A stretch of DNA of 64,000 nt. It comes from Spirochaetales bacterium (GTDB lineage: Bacteria > Spirochaetota > Spirochaetia > SZUA-6 > JAFGRV01). Under the pieces are notes generated by a model, which did no database searches, had not been told where the DNA came from, and worked only from the letters and a program-made list of their open reading frames with translations. Positions 37,184-42,957 of this stretch are shown in pieces (position 1 is the first letter of the stretch; each line of letters starts with the position of its first letter). A program made the position numbers and the translations under genes. Where the stretch lies: positions 10,386-74,385 of the forward strand of contig JAFGQK010000174.1 in the NCBI GenBank assembly GCA_016935735.1. Direction: 5' to 3'.

Positions 37184-38851
37184 ATGCCTAAGAAATTTAT
37201 AAACCTTATAACCGATCAGAAATTCATTCTTGGTATAGTACTCGCCACCCTGGTTATACTATCGGGGATGATTTTCTTAAATGATATCGTGGTCTCCATA
37301 CGCCTTCTGGAGCTCAAGGCTTATTTAAGGGATATTGACAAAAAGGCCTCGGATATGAGTACTGTAGGGATGGTAAGCAAGTTCAAACTTCACAAGAAAC
37401 TCTATGAAAATAAATTAAATGAAGATGACCTGAATAAAGAGGAGTTTAATGTAACATCCAGGCTTTTGAGTTCCGATGATCATGATGATATCCCCTTTAC
37501 AAAGTACAGAGAGCTTGCACCGCCGGTTCTTGCAGTAATGAATCTGATAAGGCTTGTGTTAAGGAAACCGCCTGTTGAATATATTCTTTCAAACAGGGAA
37601 AACTACAAACTCACCCTTGCCTACTACACTGAACGGCAAAAGAAATATAACAGGGCACTGGAGATTTACGATGACCTGTTATCGGAAGACGGGGTAAAAG
37701 CAGATCAGATTCACATTATCCTGCTCCACCAGGGATATTGCTTATCCATTATCGGTGATTATGACAGGGCAAAAGAAAAATATCTTGAAATCATAAAAAA
37801 CTTTGAAAATGAGGATGTGGCCATTACCGCAGCAAGACTTCTCCGTTTTATAGAAGAACTGGAAGCAGAGGTACGAAAGGTAAAGGAATCGGACGACAGC
37901 CCCCTTATAAAATCGGAGAAACTCTATAAACTTATTGCATTCAAGGAAGCCCTCGAAATACTGGATAAGGTGGTGGAGGAAGATGAGAAAGCATCAGACA
38001 AAGTACAGTATTTACGGGCCCGGTGCTATGAAGAAACCGGGAAAAAGGAAACATCCGTAACGATTTATCAAGACATTGTGGATAATTCCATCGAGGAAAA
38101 GCATTACGAATCGGAAACTGCAAAGCAGGCAAACCGGCGAATTTTATTAATCTCTGCAACAGAGGAAGAAGGAGAAAAAATCAAGGAATTATCCATTAAA
38201 AATCATGAACTTATCGCGGATCCTGATTTTCAGGGTCTTCTCGATACAGCGGAAAAACTGGAGACCGCTTTTACAGAAGAAGAAGAAAAATTAAAGGAAA
38301 TGGGAAAAAAAGAGTTTCCTGAAACCGGACCTACTCCCGGGAATAAGGAAGAATCCGGGGAAACCCCTTCTTCGGATGCACAGGATGAGGAACCGGGGAA
38401 AGAAATAACCGGTAAGGAACAGGAATTTAATGAATTCCTGGAAGATTCATTAAAAAATGTTGAAGAAAGAATAGACCAGTTAATAGAAGAAAAGGAAATA
38501 ACCCCTGCGCCTACACCTTTTCCAACCCCGGTTCCAGCACAGACGAAAGCAAAAGAAAGAAGAACTCCTGTCCCGACCAATGTACCGGAACCAACAGAAA
38601 AGAAAGGACCCTATAGTTTACCTTATCTGGATGATAAAGGAAATGTTGAAAAAGTGGAAGATTATAATGAAACCGGTGTCCTTACAAGGGTGAAAGAATT
38701 TAATGACAGCGGGAAGATCTTCAAACTCACCGAGTTTAATGAAACAACCGGTGAAATGAAAGGGTACTTTGTCTATGAATTCGATGAAAATGGGAATCCT
38801 GTTAAAGTGTATGCATATGATGCAGACGGGAATTTAATAAGAGATGATTAA
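37184..38851 (+). CDS. TM-anchored TPR-repeat protein with an acidic/Pro-rich linker and C-terminal YD-like repeats.
   Basis: An N-terminal TM segment is followed by TPR-like helical repeats, a 'PAPTPFPTPVPAQ' linker, and C-terminal 'YAYDADGNL'-type repeats. Confidence 0.45.
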   Translation: MPKKFINLITDQKFILGIVLATLVILSGMIFLNDIVVSIRLLELKAYLRDIDKKASDMSTVGMVSKFKLHKKLYENKLNEDDLNKEEFNVTSRLLSSDDHDDIPFTKYRELAPPVLAVMNLIRLVLRKPPVEYILSNRENYKLTLAYYTERQKKYNRALEIYDDLLSEDGVKADQIHIILLHQGYCLSIIGDYDRAKEKYLEIIKNFENEDVAITAARLLRFIEELEAEVRKVKESDDSPLIKSEKLYKLIAFKEALEILDKVVEEDEKASDKVQYLRARCYEETGKKETSVTIYQDIVDNSIEEKHYESETAKQANRRILLISATEEEGEKIKELSIKNHELIADPDFQGLLDTAEKLETAFTEEEEKLKEMGKKEFPETGPTPGNKEESGETPSSDAQDEEPGKEITGKEQEFNEFLEDSLKNVEERIDQLIEEKEITPAPTPFPTPVPAQTKAKERRTPVPTNVPEPTEKKGPYSLPYLDDKGNVEKVEDYNETGVLTRVKEFNDSGKIFKLTEFNETTGEMKGYFVYEFDENGNPVKVYAYDADGNLIRDD

Positions 38852-39252
38852 TCAATGACTTTAAAGAGTTTCTCGAAAAGGGTATCCTGAAATATTTTTC
38901 CTATTGTATCCCTTATTGATTTAAGTGCGAAATTTCTACCGCTTTTTTTTAACTGATTCTTTAAAATAATAAGCATGCAAATACCTGAAGAATCAATTGT
39001 TTTTGCTTCGGACATATCCAGAACCACGGATTTCACATTATCCGTAAGTGAATCAAGAATTTTTGTTTTTATTTTTTTTTCATTGTAAATATCAATAGCT
39101 CCCCCGATTATGAAAGTGATTTCATTTTCCTTTGTTACCAGTTTAATATGTACATCATCCGGCATTCTGTATTCTATGATATGACAATTTTGTTTTCTCT
39201 TCAAGTACCTGTAATGGATTTTTTTTTGAAAAAAAGATTTTTTTCCATGCAC
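38848..39252 (-). CDS. STAS-domain anti-sigma-factor antagonist (SpoIIAA/RsbV-like).
   Basis: The 'DMSEAKTIDSSGICMLI' motif carries a phosphorylatable Ser in the DSSG context. The probable start is the M of MPDDVHIK at about 39165. Confidence 0.6.
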   Translation of the reverse strand: MHGKKSFFQKKIHYRYLKRKQNCHIIEYRMPDDVHIKLVTKENEITFIIGGAIDIYNEKKIKTKILDSLTDNVKSVVLDMSEAKTIDSSGICMLIILKNQLKKSGRNFALKSIRDTIGKIFQDTLFEKLFKVID

Positions 39253-39393
39253 TACTTATAAAAAAAGAATATGGAATGCAGACCCATGAAATAAGTAATT
39301 TTATAAAAAGTATGGAAAAAGTGCGGAAAAGTGATATATTAAAAAAGAAATATTAACATTATTGCCGGAATTTGATATATTAACCAATGAATA

Positions 39394-39990
39394 ATGAAAC
39401 CGAAAATGTTTTATTTTTATAACCTTCATTTCCCCTCAGAAGTAAGGGTTTCCGAGTTCTCAGAAGACTGTATCAGGCTTCATGATGATTCAACACTCAT
39501 TTATGATATAAATATCCATGATCTTATACTAAGGCACTTTGTTTTTTATAATAGATGGTTTGACGTACACTCCTTTCTGGCAAAAAACGGGGATTTTGAA
39601 ATACTCCCCGGGCCTATTGATTGTTGTTTTGACTGTGACATCAGCACCCCACTCTTTAACCTGGATAATAAATTTTATAATATAGACCTGGAATATGATA
39701 TCCTTGTGGGCAAGGACGGGAAGATGCACCAGATTAAAGATGAAGAAGAGCATTTTGTTGCGATAACAAACAAGTGGATGTCCGATTTCGAGGAAAAAGG
39801 GGCCCAGAAAGGGCTTAATGATCTGAAAGAAATTCTCAATGGCCATGGGCTTATTGATTTCCTTAATACTATATACCCATTCCAGGGAATAACCTGTCCG
39901 GGGGAATCCCAGCGTTATTACAAAAAAAACATTGATGATGTGAGTATATTGAAAAAAAATGAGCGCCAGAAGTATATTGTAAAAGTATAA
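39394..39990 (+). CDS. Hypothetical protein, possibly a DUF402-like nucleoside-phosphatase family member.
   Basis: The protein is 198 aa with a 'YNIDLEYDILVGKDGKMHQIKDEEE' region. Similarity is weak. The gene abuts the HAD gene downstream. Confidence 0.3.
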   Translation: MKPKMFYFYNLHFPSEVRVSEFSEDCIRLHDDSTLIYDINIHDLILRHFVFYNRWFDVHSFLAKNGDFEILPGPIDCCFDCDISTPLFNLDNKFYNIDLEYDILVGKDGKMHQIKDEEEHFVAITNKWMSDFEEKGAQKGLNDLKEILNGHGLIDFLNTIYPFQGITCPGESQRYYKKNIDDVSILKKNERQKYIVKV

Positions 39991-40869
39991 ATGGAAGAAA
40001 TAATCAGCACCGATGTTATCAATAACCATACAGATTACAGAGGCCTGGTCATTACCGATCTTGATGGAACCCTGCTTGATTCAAATTCAAACATAAAAAC
40101 AGAAGATTACAATACCTTACTACATCTGGAACAGAACGGATTTTTAAGAGTAATCGCTACAGGCAGGAATCTCTACTCTCTTTTTAACCGGATCGATCCC
40201 GGTTTTCCTGTCGATTATATCATCTTTTCATCCGGTGCGGGGATCTGGGATCAAAAAAACAAGCGCTATATAAGAATGATTACAATGGAATCGGATGAAG
40301 TACAAAAAGCAGCTTCTTTGTTTTGTGAATTTTCTCTTGATTTCGCGGTTCATCATCCTATACCGGACAATCATCATTTCTCTTACTACCTGCAAAAAGA
40401 TAAAAACGAGGATTTTATACGCAGAGTGCAACATTACAGGGATTTTGCTTCCAGATGGGAAAACCTCCCTTCCATATACCCAAGGGCAAGCCAGGTTCTT
40501 ACTATTATTACCGGTAACAGGGATAACTCTATTTATTACGATATTCGCATGAAACTTCCCGGTTTTACTGTTATAAGAACAACATCTCCCATGGATCATA
40601 CCTCCCTCTGGATTGAAACATTCCCCCAAAACGTATCAAAAGGCCAGGCATCCGCATGGCTTGCCTCCAGGTTCGGTGTAAACAGGGAAAATACCCTGGC
40701 AATCGGGAATGACTACAATGATACCGATCTTCTTTCCTGGGCAAAAACAGCATACGTTGTTTCAAATGCCCCGGATGAATTAAAAAAAATGTTTCCTTCT
40801 GTTGTATCACACAATGAATGCGGCTTTTCGGCAGCAGTAAACAAATGGTTTCCGGCATTTACAAAGTAA
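39991..40869 (+). CDS. HAD-IIB (Cof-type) phosphatase.
   Basis: Motif I 'ITDLDGTLLD' and motif IV 'GNDYNDTDLL' are present. Confidence 0.75.
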   Translation: MEEIISTDVINNHTDYRGLVITDLDGTLLDSNSNIKTEDYNTLLHLEQNGFLRVIATGRNLYSLFNRIDPGFPVDYIIFSSGAGIWDQKNKRYIRMITMESDEVQKAASLFCEFSLDFAVHHPIPDNHHFSYYLQKDKNEDFIRRVQHYRDFASRWENLPSIYPRASQVLTIITGNRDNSIYYDIRMKLPGFTVIRTTSPMDHTSLWIETFPQNVSKGQASAWLASRFGVNRENTLAIGNDYNDTDLLSWAKTAYVVSNAPDELKKMFPSVVSHNECGFSAAVNKWFPAFTK

Positions 40870-40974
40870 AAAAATCAGGATATACGGGTTTTTTAAAAAA
40901 GGGGTGTTGAACTTTTTATAAAATGTTCTATATTATTATATAATACCGGAAAAACCGGCAATAAGGATACTGAT

Positions 40975-41316
40975 ATGAATGAAATAACGCTTGATATTAA
41001 AAGTAACCTTGGACAACGTTTAAAGAGAATCAGGAAACCGGAAAAACGGTGTCTTCTTTTTAAAAATAATATAATCCCTGCAGCAACGAAAATCACGATC
41101 GGCAGGGATAAAATGAATAATATTGTTATTTATGACAATATGATTTCACGTTTTCATGCAGTAATTCAAAAGATCAACCAGGCCTATTTTATTAAAGACC
41201 TTAACAGTACAAACGGGACATCGGTAAATGGGAAAATGGTGCCGGGGGGAAAGTACATACGCTTATATCCGAATGATATCATTCAATTAGGAAGAACCGA
41301 TTTATCGTTTATTTAA
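40975..41316 (+). CDS. Small FHA-domain protein.
   Basis: 'ITIGRDKMNNIVIYDNMISRFHAVIQ...LNSTNGTSVNGKMV...IIQLG' is an FHA signature. Confidence 0.7.
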   Translation: MNEITLDIKSNLGQRLKRIRKPEKRCLLFKNNIIPAATKITIGRDKMNNIVIYDNMISRFHAVIQKINQAYFIKDLNSTNGTSVNGKMVPGGKYIRLYPNDIIQLGRTDLSFI

Positions 41317-41535
41317 CGGGGTTCTTGCAAAAATACCATATTTACTGCAAGAACCAATATATACAAAAGTGGAGTATTTTTAATTCCTTTTAATATAATA
41401 AAAATACTCCAAAGCCAATTGTAAAAATCACCTTGTTGAAAACGACAATTGGAGTTCAACGAATGTTGAGCACTCTACAACTATTATTGGATTTTTGCAA
41501 GTGGCTATAACATAATTCAGGAAAGGATTACATTT

Positions 41536-42432
41536 ATGGGGGAAACATTTAACCAGCTTCCGGAAAATATACAGGTTCATTTAAGGAAAATAACGGAAAG
41601 CTCCGGTTTACCGAATACAGAAGAATCTGCTGAATTAATTGCTGTAAACTGGGTAGAAAAAAAGGACTTATTTAAGGAACAGATCAAATTACTTGGGATG
41701 AATGAAGTTGATATCTTTAAGAAGGACGATGAACGGCCAGTTCTTCTTCTTACCTATTCAGGAAGCCTTATATCCCTTGGTGCCCTTGCCGGAGGAAAGC
41801 GATGGATTGAATATGCCAGTATAAAACTAAGAAGTGATGTACCGAACGTGGTAAATGTGCCTGAATCTGCCCTGGAAGATGATATACAGACAGATGCTGA
41901 AGCGGTTTTTACACAGGGAAAGATAAAGCAGACTTCTTCTCTCTTGAAAATAGCAGTATGCAGCGAAGAAATTCCTGTAGAAGAACAGGAGAAACGGATA
42001 AGAGAGGCAATGATATTCCTTACAAACAGCTTTACAAAAGCAAACAGGAAAATAACCGCTTCCAGGGGTGAAACCCCGGATAACTTTACCATGAAATCGA
42101 TTATCCGGTATATTGCAAGCAAAAACAATATAACCCAGAAACTTACCGGTCAGATACTTGATGATTTCCTTTTTATCCTCGAATCCGGGATGCTCCTTGG
42201 AGAAAGGATTCCCCTTGGCCGTATGGGCAAGCTTTTTATAAAAAAACGCGCTGCACAAAAAGCACGGGTAAGTATCAATCCCCACACCCAGGAAGAGATG
42301 CTTATCCCTGCAAAACCGGAAATGTTCGTGCCAAAGATATCTTTCAGTAAAATGATAAAGGAAAAAGTAAAGACAGTAGATATCGATGATATTGAAGATG
42401 CCGGAGATGAAAAAGAATCGGAAGAAGAATAA
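41536..42432 (+). CDS. Hypothetical protein with a C-terminal HU/IHF-fold DNA-binding domain and an acidic tail.
   Basis: The C-terminal ~90 aa, 'LTGQILDDFLFILESGMLLGERIPLGRMGKLFIKKRAAQKARVSINPHTQEEMLIPAKPEMFVPKISFSKMIKEKV', match the HU/IHF pattern (G-x-F, R-x-x-R-x-G-R-N-P-x-T-x-E-x-I-x-I-P-A). The N-terminal ~190 aa are unrecognised. Confidence 0.45.
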   Translation: MGETFNQLPENIQVHLRKITESSGLPNTEESAELIAVNWVEKKDLFKEQIKLLGMNEVDIFKKDDERPVLLLTYSGSLISLGALAGGKRWIEYASIKLRSDVPNVVNVPESALEDDIQTDAEAVFTQGKIKQTSSLLKIAVCSEEIPVEEQEKRIREAMIFLTNSFTKANRKITASRGETPDNFTMKSIIRYIASKNNITQKLTGQILDDFLFILESGMLLGERIPLGRMGKLFIKKRAAQKARVSINPHTQEEMLIPAKPEMFVPKISFSKMIKEKVKTVDIDDIEDAGDEKESEEE

Positions 42433-42462: not shown

Positions 42463-42957
42463 TCAAATAAACCGGAATGATTCGAAAAAATGGAGTGCAT
42501 CCGGTTCACTTAATCCGGATTCGGAAATTGTTACCACCTCCAGTTGATACTGCTTATCCTTGTTAATACAGAACAGAATATCCATATATGTCTTCACTTT
42601 ATTTTCTACCCGTGAAACACGAAGGGTTAAAGCCGGGAGGTCCAGGAATTCGATATTTCCAGAAGCAATAACGGTAGAAACCTTGACGACATTTGAACGG
42701 GCATAATCCATTACCTGGAGAGATGATTCCCTGTCAAGGATAACACCCAGATCGGTGATTCCCAGCATAAATGCCTTCTCACTATTTTCCGTGATGTAAC
42801 TTTTTAATAGTCCTGAACCAGATGCTGTAGGTATTTTCTGCTCGGAAAACATAACTTCCCTGCAATTAAAAGGCACTTCAAAACTAAAACCGGCTTCCTC
42901 ATTTTTGTAAATCCTGTATCCGGAATCCCGGATACCTTCCTGAGTTTCCATAGGCAT
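42463..42957 (-). CDS. Hypothetical protein.
   Basis: A 164-aa ORF. I recognise no motif. Confidence 0.3.
   Translation of the reverse strand: MPMETQEGIRDSGYRIYKNEEAGFSFEVPFNCREVMFSEQKIPTASGSGLLKSYITENSEKAFMLGITDLGVILDRESSLQVMDYARSNVVKVSTVIASGNIEFLDLPALTLRVSRVENKVKTYMDILFCINKDKQYQLEVVTISESGLSEPDALHFFESFRFI

Follow-up and report, generated by a model that had tools for sequence, protein, structure and literature searches.

A Spirochaetota HU-superfamily protein with an uncatalogued N-terminal domain and contextual ties to a Ser/Thr-phosphorylation gene cluster

The gene described here lies within a 64-kb window (the whole stretch of DNA that was analysed), where it occupies positions 41536..42432 of the forward strand, stop codon included. 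It begins with an ATG, is preceded by a purine-rich ribosome-binding site (AGGAAAGGA) and encodes a two-domain HU-family protein of 298 aa. An identical MAG protein at NCBI (P0001) is labelled 'HU family DNA-binding protein [Spirochaetales bacterium]'. From its N terminus, the protein comprises an uncatalogued alpha/beta module (aa 1-175; 41536..42060), an inter-domain linker (aa 176-184; 42061..42087), an HU/IHF domain (aa 185-279; 42088..42372) from which a beta-ribbon DNA-binding arm extends (aa 236-266; 42241..42333), and an acidic, disordered C-terminal tail (aa 280-298; 42373..42429), all encoded on the forward strand. The full-length AF2 model, built on 32 homologs, has a pLDDT of 82.7 and leaves the domain-to-domain geometry uncertain (pTM 0.57). 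The linker, which is variable in alignment A1, coincides with a dip in confidence (pLDDT 62-74 in blocks spanning aa 171-190). The tail (DIDDIEDAGDEKESEEE) contains 11 Asp or Glu among its 19 residues, and a pLDDT below 50 over aa 285-298 predicts disorder; a comparable tail, defined as at least 10 aa with at least 5 Asp or Glu, is present in 37 of 81 family members. The layout given in the original prediction, an unknown domain followed by a C-terminal HU/IHF domain and an acidic tail, is therefore borne out by profile, fold and sequence.

Directly upstream, a gene on the same strand (40975..41316) encodes a small FHA-domain protein of 113 aa (PF00498, E=3.2e-22), in which the canonical GR, SxxH and NG motifs can be read. 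FHA domains are phospho-threonine readers. The two genes are separated by a structured spacer of 219 nt (41317..41535, forward strand), whose inverted repeats form three hairpins at 41320-41355 (10 bp), 41370-41411 (13 bp) and 41415-41452 (8 bp). Folded as RNA, the spacer has a minimum free energy of -62.2 kcal/mol and folds far better than shuffled controls (z=-7.4). Both the FHA neighbour and the triple hairpins had been reported in the original prediction and are confirmed here. The spacer matched no Rfam family at E<=1, and its hairpin arms are not repeated elsewhere within the 64-kb window. Relatives with 88% and 77% identity carry an orthologous 113-aa FHA gene only 29-31 nt upstream of the fusion gene, and the hairpin-rich insertion is absent from loci L087 and L088; the approximately 190 extra nucleotides of hairpins are a lineage-specific insertion between the FHA and fusion genes. 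A sigma-70-like promoter candidate (TTTATA-18-TATAAT, 10/12 matches, a consensus match only) lies at 40915..40944 on the forward strand and is a possible promoter of an FHA-fusion transcript; no promoter-like site was found on the forward strand of the 219-nt spacer. The surrounding gene order is common to the window and the 88% and 77% relatives, with TPR, STAS, DUF402-like, HAD phosphatase, FHA and fusion genes followed by a gene of about 175 aa on the opposite strand and an AMP-binding enzyme.

The C-terminal region was assigned to the HU superfamily by several searches. PF00216 (Bac_DNA_binding) scores 47.3 bits over aa 185-279 (E=2.6e-12; gathering score 22.4 bits) and is matched from position 2 to position 90 of its 90 positions, in agreement with the original prediction, which had placed the HU region at nt 42088-42390 (aa 185-285). 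Thermotoga HU (1riy/1b8z) was matched at E about 1e-5 by phmmer against PDB sequences. Foldseek matched the AF2 model to HU, IHF and Borrelia Hbb with a probability of 1.00 and target-normalised TM-scores of 0.63-0.86, the matches including 3rhi, 1p71, 2np2 and 1ihf. Its predicted secondary structure, with helices at 186-197 and 201-220, strands over 231-270 and a last helix at 272-279, follows the helix-helix-sheet-arm-helix topology. A non-HU fold, which the original prediction had allowed for in this region, finds no place in these results, as profile and fold searches alike return HU. In the alignment to 1riy, the HU dimer-core residues F47 and F50 are replaced by the hydrophobic M230 and L233. 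The equivalog models for HU-alpha/beta and IHF-alpha/beta (TIGR00988, NF001222, NF007945, NF001401) gave scores of 16-22.4 bits against cut-offs of 111-157. The protein is a member of the HU superfamily, and not an ortholog of HU or IHF.

Compared with canonical HU/IHF proteins such as Thermotoga maritima HU (1B8Z/1RIY), Anabaena HU-DNA (1P71) and Borrelia Hbb (2NP2), the fusion family has the same fold and domain length, and a conserved arm with basic residues and an Asn-Pro at its tip. In contrast, the canonical proteins are stand-alone and measure about 90-100 aa, whereas the fusion adds a folded N-terminal domain of 175 aa and often an acidic tail. Its arm is also longer than theirs by 3+3 residues; relative to Thermotoga HU, the phmmer alignment to 1riy places two 3-residue insertions, one per strand. 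We take N248-P249 at the arm tip to be at the position of HU's intercalating proline. Conservation along the arm is high in the 81 family members, with K242 present in 77, A243 in 81, R244 in 80, N248 in 78, P249 in 74 and P266 in 81, and K275 is also nearly invariant. The window protein retains R238, K242, R244, N248 and P249, each of which is kept in 69-80 of the 81. Judged by this conservation, the DNA-contacting arm residues are under purifying selection across the family. The HU motifs quoted in the original prediction are found in the window protein, although its arm tip (KARVSINPHTQE) departs from the family consensus (KARVGRNPATGE) at S246, I247 and Q252. The consensus tip, KARVGRNPATGEEITI, is close to the HU motif RxGRNPxTGE. 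In the window copy, I247 stands at the R61-equivalent arginine of HU and Q252 at a conserved glycine; because both are lost, DNA binding by this copy may be weaker than in typical members.

The N-terminal domain (N-domain) is of a different kind. Modelled by itself with AF2, it reached a pLDDT of 89.3 and a pTM of 0.84, with helices at 10-22 and 29-52, a seven-stranded sheet over 56-141 and a long helix at 148-175. The original prediction had recognised nothing in the N-terminal ~190 residues, and aa 1-184 indeed gave no Pfam, NCBIfam or PDB-sequence match. More specifically, no Pfam or NCBIfam family was found for the N-domain of the window protein or of all 43 members of alignment A2 (only scattered single-member noise), a profile of these 43 sequences matched no PDB sequence at E<=10, and a Foldseek search against the PDB returned nothing convincing (best E 0.054, TM about 0.2). 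On the model, the N-domain is predicted to be an independent, confidently folded module outside catalogued families.

This module is also found apart from HU. A phmmer search with aa 1-184, exhaustive over 1.84 billion representatives, returned about 144 cluster representatives, and many of the matches are stand-alone proteins of 173-180 aa with 26-43% identity to the query. Two further architectures were found: P0190, a 701-aa protein in which a VWA domain and a transmembrane (TM) segment precede the N-domain and a further C-terminal domain, and P0223, a 297-aa protein that joins the N-domain to the further C-terminal domain also present in P0190. No Pfam or NCBIfam family covers the N-domain region of P0190, P0223 or the stand-alone forms. 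The window N-domain scores E=2e-73 against an HMM derived from A2, partly by construction, as the window sequence is itself in A2. A weak match of 1798 aa (P0239) has the same length as an ORF of the window; the two are unrelated.

Neighbour-joining places the N-domains of the fusions and of the stand-alone proteins in separate clades, with 76 of the 81 fusions in a clade free of paralogs. N-domain identity is 50% and 55% within the clades and 38% between them, and the duplication is therefore old. A set of residues is invariant in both clades, namely H15, S23-G24-L25, W39, K42, F46, S75-G76-S77, R89, Y93, S95, I96, R99-x-D-V-P103, S134, F166 and N170; the window N-domain has W39, K42, F46, S75-G76-S77, R89, Y93, S95, R99-x-D-V-P103, S134, F166 and N170. 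Invariants specific to the fusions include Q151, R154, R156, E157, A158, T163 and N164, which lie in the helix leading into the HU domain. As a speculative reading of the alignments, T73 and T133, the latter with a conserved Ile, Leu or Val at +3 (T133-x-x-[ILV]), are candidate phospho-acceptors.

The fusion itself is widespread among the Spirochaetota. A search covering 5.8 billion proteins gave 330 matches, the best 120 of which are nearly all 258-312 aa long, all contain PF00216 and share 51-100% identity with the query. The same two-domain layout is kept in more than 300 Spirochaetota homologs of 283-305 aa, so the gene is one gene rather than a frameshifted pair, an artefact that the original prediction had considered; the full length of nearly all of the best 120 of 330 homologs, each with PF00216, likewise excludes it. 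The family-wide spread in Spirochaetota thus indicates that the fusion is ancient. Where a source names these proteins, they are labelled 'HU family DNA-binding protein' or 'nucleoid DNA-binding protein' and come from Spirochaetales, Spirochaetaceae or Spirochaetota MAGs; no named cultured organism is among the matches listed. A scan with one genome per GTDB species yielded 153 loci, the best 80 of which are almost all labelled as Spirochaetota MAGs. Both domains are conserved about equally, with mean pairwise identities across 81 proteins of 49% for the N-domain and 55% for the HU domain, which rules out a better conservation of the N-domain.

Gene neighbourhoods connect the fusion to a recurring set of signalling genes. 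At locus L001 (CP070696.1), the fusion gene shares 8 nt with an overlapping 123-aa FHA gene and is divergent from an operon headed by a 176-aa stand-alone N-domain paralog. After the paralog come a Metallophos (PPP-like) protein of 346 aa, in which GDxH and GNHE motifs are present, a Ser/Thr kinase of 633 aa that has a TM segment and an extracytoplasmic C-terminal region, a multi-TM protein of 296 aa with a C-terminal FHA domain, and a VWA protein (the VWA proteins of the cluster being noted as VWA(-FHA)). Pfam searches on the cluster gave Pkinase at E=8e-55 and Metallophos at 22.8 bits, as well as FHA and VWA. HMM scans of the locus ORFs found an adjacent paralog in 52 of 81 loci; it usually lies on the opposite strand, 80-1000 nt upstream of the fusion gene. 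Of the 51 loci whose upstream flank reaches 5.8 kb or more, 37 have all five cluster genes no further than 6 kb from the fusion gene, usually in divergent orientation. A few loci place the cluster downstream or on the same strand, which shows that the linkage has persisted through rearrangement; it is also kept among proteins that are only 45-55% identical. About 30% of the loci lack an adjacent cluster, including those of the window's subclade (L003, L005-L009, L012). Within the 64-kb window, there is no paralog, kinase, phosphatase or VWA gene and one FHA gene only; if the source genome has a kinase cluster, it lies outside this window. Membership of a known anti-phage defence system was also considered and rejected: when the fusion, small FHA, paralog, phosphatase, kinase, TM-FHA and VWA proteins were compared with PADLOC-DB 2.0, only the kinase was matched, by the generic models PD-T4-6 and mad6, and the other six proteins matched none.

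The small FHA gene is a further, partial element of this context. In 17 of 81 loci, among them that of the window, it is the immediate neighbour of the fusion gene, 14 times upstream and 3 times downstream, once on the opposite strand, so that three different arrangements occur; the two genes overlap or are 29-31 nt apart. The FHA link put forward in the original prediction holds to this extent, while the stronger link is to the paralog-phosphatase-kinase-FHA-VWA cluster. P0190, whose gene adjoins a TM-FHA gene, is an independent Rosetta-stone link, as in this one lineage the N-domain is fused to the VWA protein itself, and its predicted layout sets the N-domain on the cytoplasmic side of a VWA membrane protein. 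As genomic context, the neighbourhood linkage shows a functional association, with direction and mechanism left unspecified. In many loci, the divergent intergenic regions are very short (70-110 nt); a motif resembling GAAATTCCA / GGAATTCC recurs in such regions and was seen by eye, without statistics.

Fusions of HU-superfamily domains have been described in other lineages, and the original prediction had pointed to HU-CCDC81 as a likeness. In the 2017 survey by Burroughs et al. (PMC5499826), HU-CCDC81 proteins of Bacteroidota have an N-terminal HU domain with a truncated hairpin tip, a disordered segment with a TM helix, and C-terminal SPOR/LysM. HU-HIG proteins are described there as having an additional beta-hairpin at the N terminus, plus a strand at the C terminus, followed by a C-terminal wHTH, Ig or Gly-rich module. 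Like the fusion family, both place an HU-superfamily domain within larger, multi-domain, lineage-specific and little-studied proteins (PMC5499826). As far as these descriptions go, the fusion family differs in its C-terminal HU domain, its longer arm, its lack of a TM segment and its different N-terminal partner (PMC5499826). The window protein has no TM, SPOR or LysM Pfam match, and its arm is lengthened by the two 3-residue insertions; with HU C-terminal, the arm longer and no TM, the likeness does not hold as a family assignment to HU-CCDC81 as described. The C-terminal modules described for HU-HIG are likewise absent, which sets the family apart by described architecture and not as a sequence-level clade. 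The N-domain-HU arrangement is absent from the main text of the survey (PMC5499826), and no description of the fusion architecture or of the spirochaete cluster was found in the literature.

Together, we propose at about even odds (roughly 0.5) that the fusion is a Spirochaetota HU-type DNA-binding protein whose N-terminal domain serves as a regulatory or adaptor domain of a Ser/Thr-phosphorylation signalling system. We favour a signalling role because the N-domain is repeatedly tied to FHA, VWA, kinase and phosphatase genes, both by neighbourhood and by fusion. In such a mechanism, the fusion protein would bind and bend DNA as an HU-type dimer, while the kinase and phosphatase of the cluster would determine whether the N-domain or a partner is phosphorylated. 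The small FHA protein encoded alongside could read this state, for example by binding a phospho-acceptor of the N-domain; alternatively, the stand-alone paralog might compete for the same partner, or the N-domain adaptor might exchange with the paralog. The phospho-state would then alter how the HU module binds DNA or oligomerises, and thereby transcription or local nucleoid structure. The genomic evidence suggests that phosphorylation could control DNA binding of the fusion protein. A more detailed version is put forward tentatively: the N-domain may be an unrecognised Spirochaetota phospho-signalling module, acting as a cytoplasmic substrate or adaptor of a transmembrane VWA/FHA/receptor-kinase/PPP-phosphatase system, with the HU fusion as a one-protein route to DNA bending.

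Other explanations have to be weighed against a role in phosphorylation signalling. The protein might be a constitutive nucleoid-associated HU variant, in which the N-domain is a lineage-specific oligomerisation or DNA-bridging module and the cluster link merely hitch-hikes from the old duplication. A complete and conserved HU domain, the plain 'HU family' and 'nucleoid DNA-binding protein' labels, the window and the ~30% of loci without a cluster nearby, and the existence of extended HU proteins such as mycobacterial HupB (PMC5676037) fit this explanation. It is nevertheless somewhat unlikely, given that the cluster stays adjacent in 37 of 51 well-flanked loci at only 45-55% identity, that a separate VWA-N-domain fusion exists, that the small FHA gene remains a neighbour through rearrangements, and that the polar invariants common with the paralog point to a specific binding site, not to a generic oligomerisation surface. 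These invariants (H15, K42, S75, S77, R89, Y93, S95, R99, D101, S134 and N170) bear equally on a one-component regulator, in which the N-domain would gate the HU domain by sensing a small anionic ligand (a nucleotide second messenger, for instance, or a phosphorylated metabolite), the paralog sensing the same ligand for the kinase operon. On the model, they map to one face of strand beta4, to the beta2-beta3 turn and to flanking helices, invariant Ser, Arg, Tyr, Lys, His and Asn residues are what phosphate-binding sites typically contain, and a sensor joined to a DNA-binding domain is the classic one-component layout. But the N-domain resembles no known ligand-binding fold in the Pfam, PDB and Foldseek searches, and such a sensor would not account for why FHA, VWA and kinase genes in particular are linked, so that we consider a pure ligand sensor unlikely. 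Such a sensor is also compatible with phospho-signalling and does not exclude it.

The fusion could instead act locally, as a site-specific, IHF-like transcription factor that controls the divergent paralog-kinase operon in an autoregulatory manner, the window copy having been orphaned. The divergent layout with its 70-110-nt intergenic regions in many loci would suit such a regulator, as would the recurring intergenic motif, if its recognition by eye and without statistics is accepted. This is quite improbable, as the fusion is retained and equally conserved where the operon is not adjacent, and the NCBIfam IHF equivalog scores are far below threshold. Furthermore, the HU-like domain might no longer bind DNA and act as a protein- or RNA-binding clasp, which the N-domain or the acidic tail might occlude. 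Such a role has been proposed for some HU-HIG and HU-CCDC81 proteins in a survey that also discusses non-DNA-binding HU clades (PMC5499826). Two canonical tip residues are missing from the window copy, and its acidic tail could mimic DNA. To this clasp we give very little credence, since the arm is lengthened rather than truncated, K242, R244, N248, P249 and K275 are nearly invariant family-wide, and more than half of the family has no acidic tail.

HU/IHF proteins are usually seen as small, constitutive architectural proteins. To our knowledge, the route from bacterial Ser/Thr kinase pathways to DNA is known in only a few cases, and we know of almost no characterised regulators from environmental spirochaetes. 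The 190 residues left as unknown in the original prediction are, on sequence comparison, a distinct, widespread and uncatalogued domain with strong contextual ties to a phospho-threonine signalling cluster. One conserved domain recurs in three settings, encoded by the first gene of a kinase-phosphatase-FHA-VWA operon, joined to a VWA membrane protein and joined to HU, which provides a concrete, testable link from kinase to DNA. The fusion is a new architectural variant of the HU superfamily, for which the regulatory mechanism proposed is plausible. If the coupling to phosphorylation is true, it would add a new domain family, possibly with a new fold, and a new output mechanism of phospho-threonine signalling in spirochaetes; if the N-domain is a signalling module, the fusions would form a new class of kinase-responsive nucleoid or transcription regulators with a fold absent among solved structures. 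Should the coupling prove false, the family nonetheless stands as a clear case of an HU-superfamily architecture so far undescribed, to which databases give no more than the name 'HU family DNA-binding protein'.

Partial precedents exist for both sides of the proposed mechanism. DrHU of Deinococcus is an HU protein regulated by phosphorylation (PMC9900698), and mycobacterial HupB is an HU with an added region (PMC5676037). In these proteins, DNA binding is modulated by or linked to Ser/Thr phosphorylation (PMC9900698, PMC5676037), which for the fusion family is only proposed. Their phosphorylated sites are found in the HU core or in a C-terminal tail that is basic and of low complexity, whereas the candidate element of the fusion is a globular N-terminal domain that has a paralog. 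On the signalling side, the archaeal network of ArnA (FHA), ArnB (vWA), ArnC and ArnD (kinases) and PP2A controls transcription (PMC6509490), and Deinococcus DRA0331-0334 is a vWA-STPK-FHA-PP2C operon (bioRxiv 10.64898/2026.01.23.701218). Both contain the same kit as the spirochaete cluster, with an FHA reader, a vWA protein, a eukaryote-like Ser/Thr kinase and a phosphatase, and the output of the Arn network is gene expression (PMC6509490). None of the Arn or DRA components was found to be homologous to the N-domain. Compared with these systems, the spirochaete cluster has a PPP-like Metallophos enzyme and membrane-anchored FHA and VWA proteins, and it adds the uncatalogued N-domain protein together with its HU-domain paralog.

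The arm tip of the HU/IHF domain in the window fusion protein reads S-I-N-P-H-T-Q (window 42274-42294, about residues 247-253), and its counterpart G-R-N-P-A-T-G is present in 45-77 of the 81 family members. The window arm tip carries neither an arginine equivalent to R61 of HU nor the conserved glycine. The closest relatives likewise depart from the consensus at this site, within the same subclade that is without an adjacent kinase cluster.

The fusion gene is separated from the upstream FHA gene by a spacer of 219 nt (window 41317-41535) that holds three perfect hairpins of 10, 13 and 8 bp and, taken as RNA, folds with a z-score of -7.4 against shuffled controls. In contrast, the spacer measures just 29-31 nt in the 88% and 77% relatives, indicating that approximately 190 nt were inserted in the window lineage. 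A search of Rfam with the spacer returned no match, and no second copy was found elsewhere within the 64-kb window. Candidate origins of the insert include a MITE-like remnant, an attenuator or an RNA-stability element.

Downstream, a 164-aa ORF without a Pfam match (window 42463-42957, minus strand) converges on the fusion gene, its stop-to-stop zone beginning 31 nt past the end of the latter. Genes for proteins of 164-184 aa occupy the same position and strand in loci L004, L087 and L088, identifying the ORF as a conserved neighbor in this subclade. On the other side, the upstream block (window 37184-40869) shares synteny with L088, the 77% relative. It encodes a 555-aa TPR-like protein, a protein with a STAS domain, a 198-aa protein with a weak DUF402-like match and a HAD/Cof-type hydrolase. 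The STAS gene lies on the minus strand, and its assignment was taken from L088. STAS, a domain of the anti-sigma antagonist type, itself functions in partner-switching phospho-signaling.

The cluster phosphatase of locus L001 (3951-4991, minus strand) has no precomputed Pfam match and exceeds the Pfam Metallophos cut-off of 21.5 only marginally, with 22.8 bits, yet contains both GDxH and GNHE motifs. Together, these sequence features suggest that it may represent a divergent lineage of PPP-family Ser/Thr phosphatases.

Where the paralog and the fusion gene are divergent, the intergenic regions are very short, spanning 70-110 nt (L034, L038, L040, L041, L046, L048, L056, L059, L063, L065 and others). 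Many of them contain, as read by eye and without statistics, a semi-palindrome resembling GAAATTCCA / GGAATTCC, located about 20-35 nt 5' of the ribosome-binding site of the fusion gene. This motif may represent a common operator or promoter element.

The N-domain also occurs in other fusions. In proteins P0190 (locus L085, 7001-9106) and P0223, it is joined to a further conserved stretch at the C-terminus, about 120 aa long (WIILEWFRIG...DFDIGL...), for which no Pfam family was found. In P0190, the N-domain with this stretch comes after a TM helix and a VWA domain on the extracytoplasmic side, and the gene adjoins a TM-FHA gene in a genome of 30% GC.
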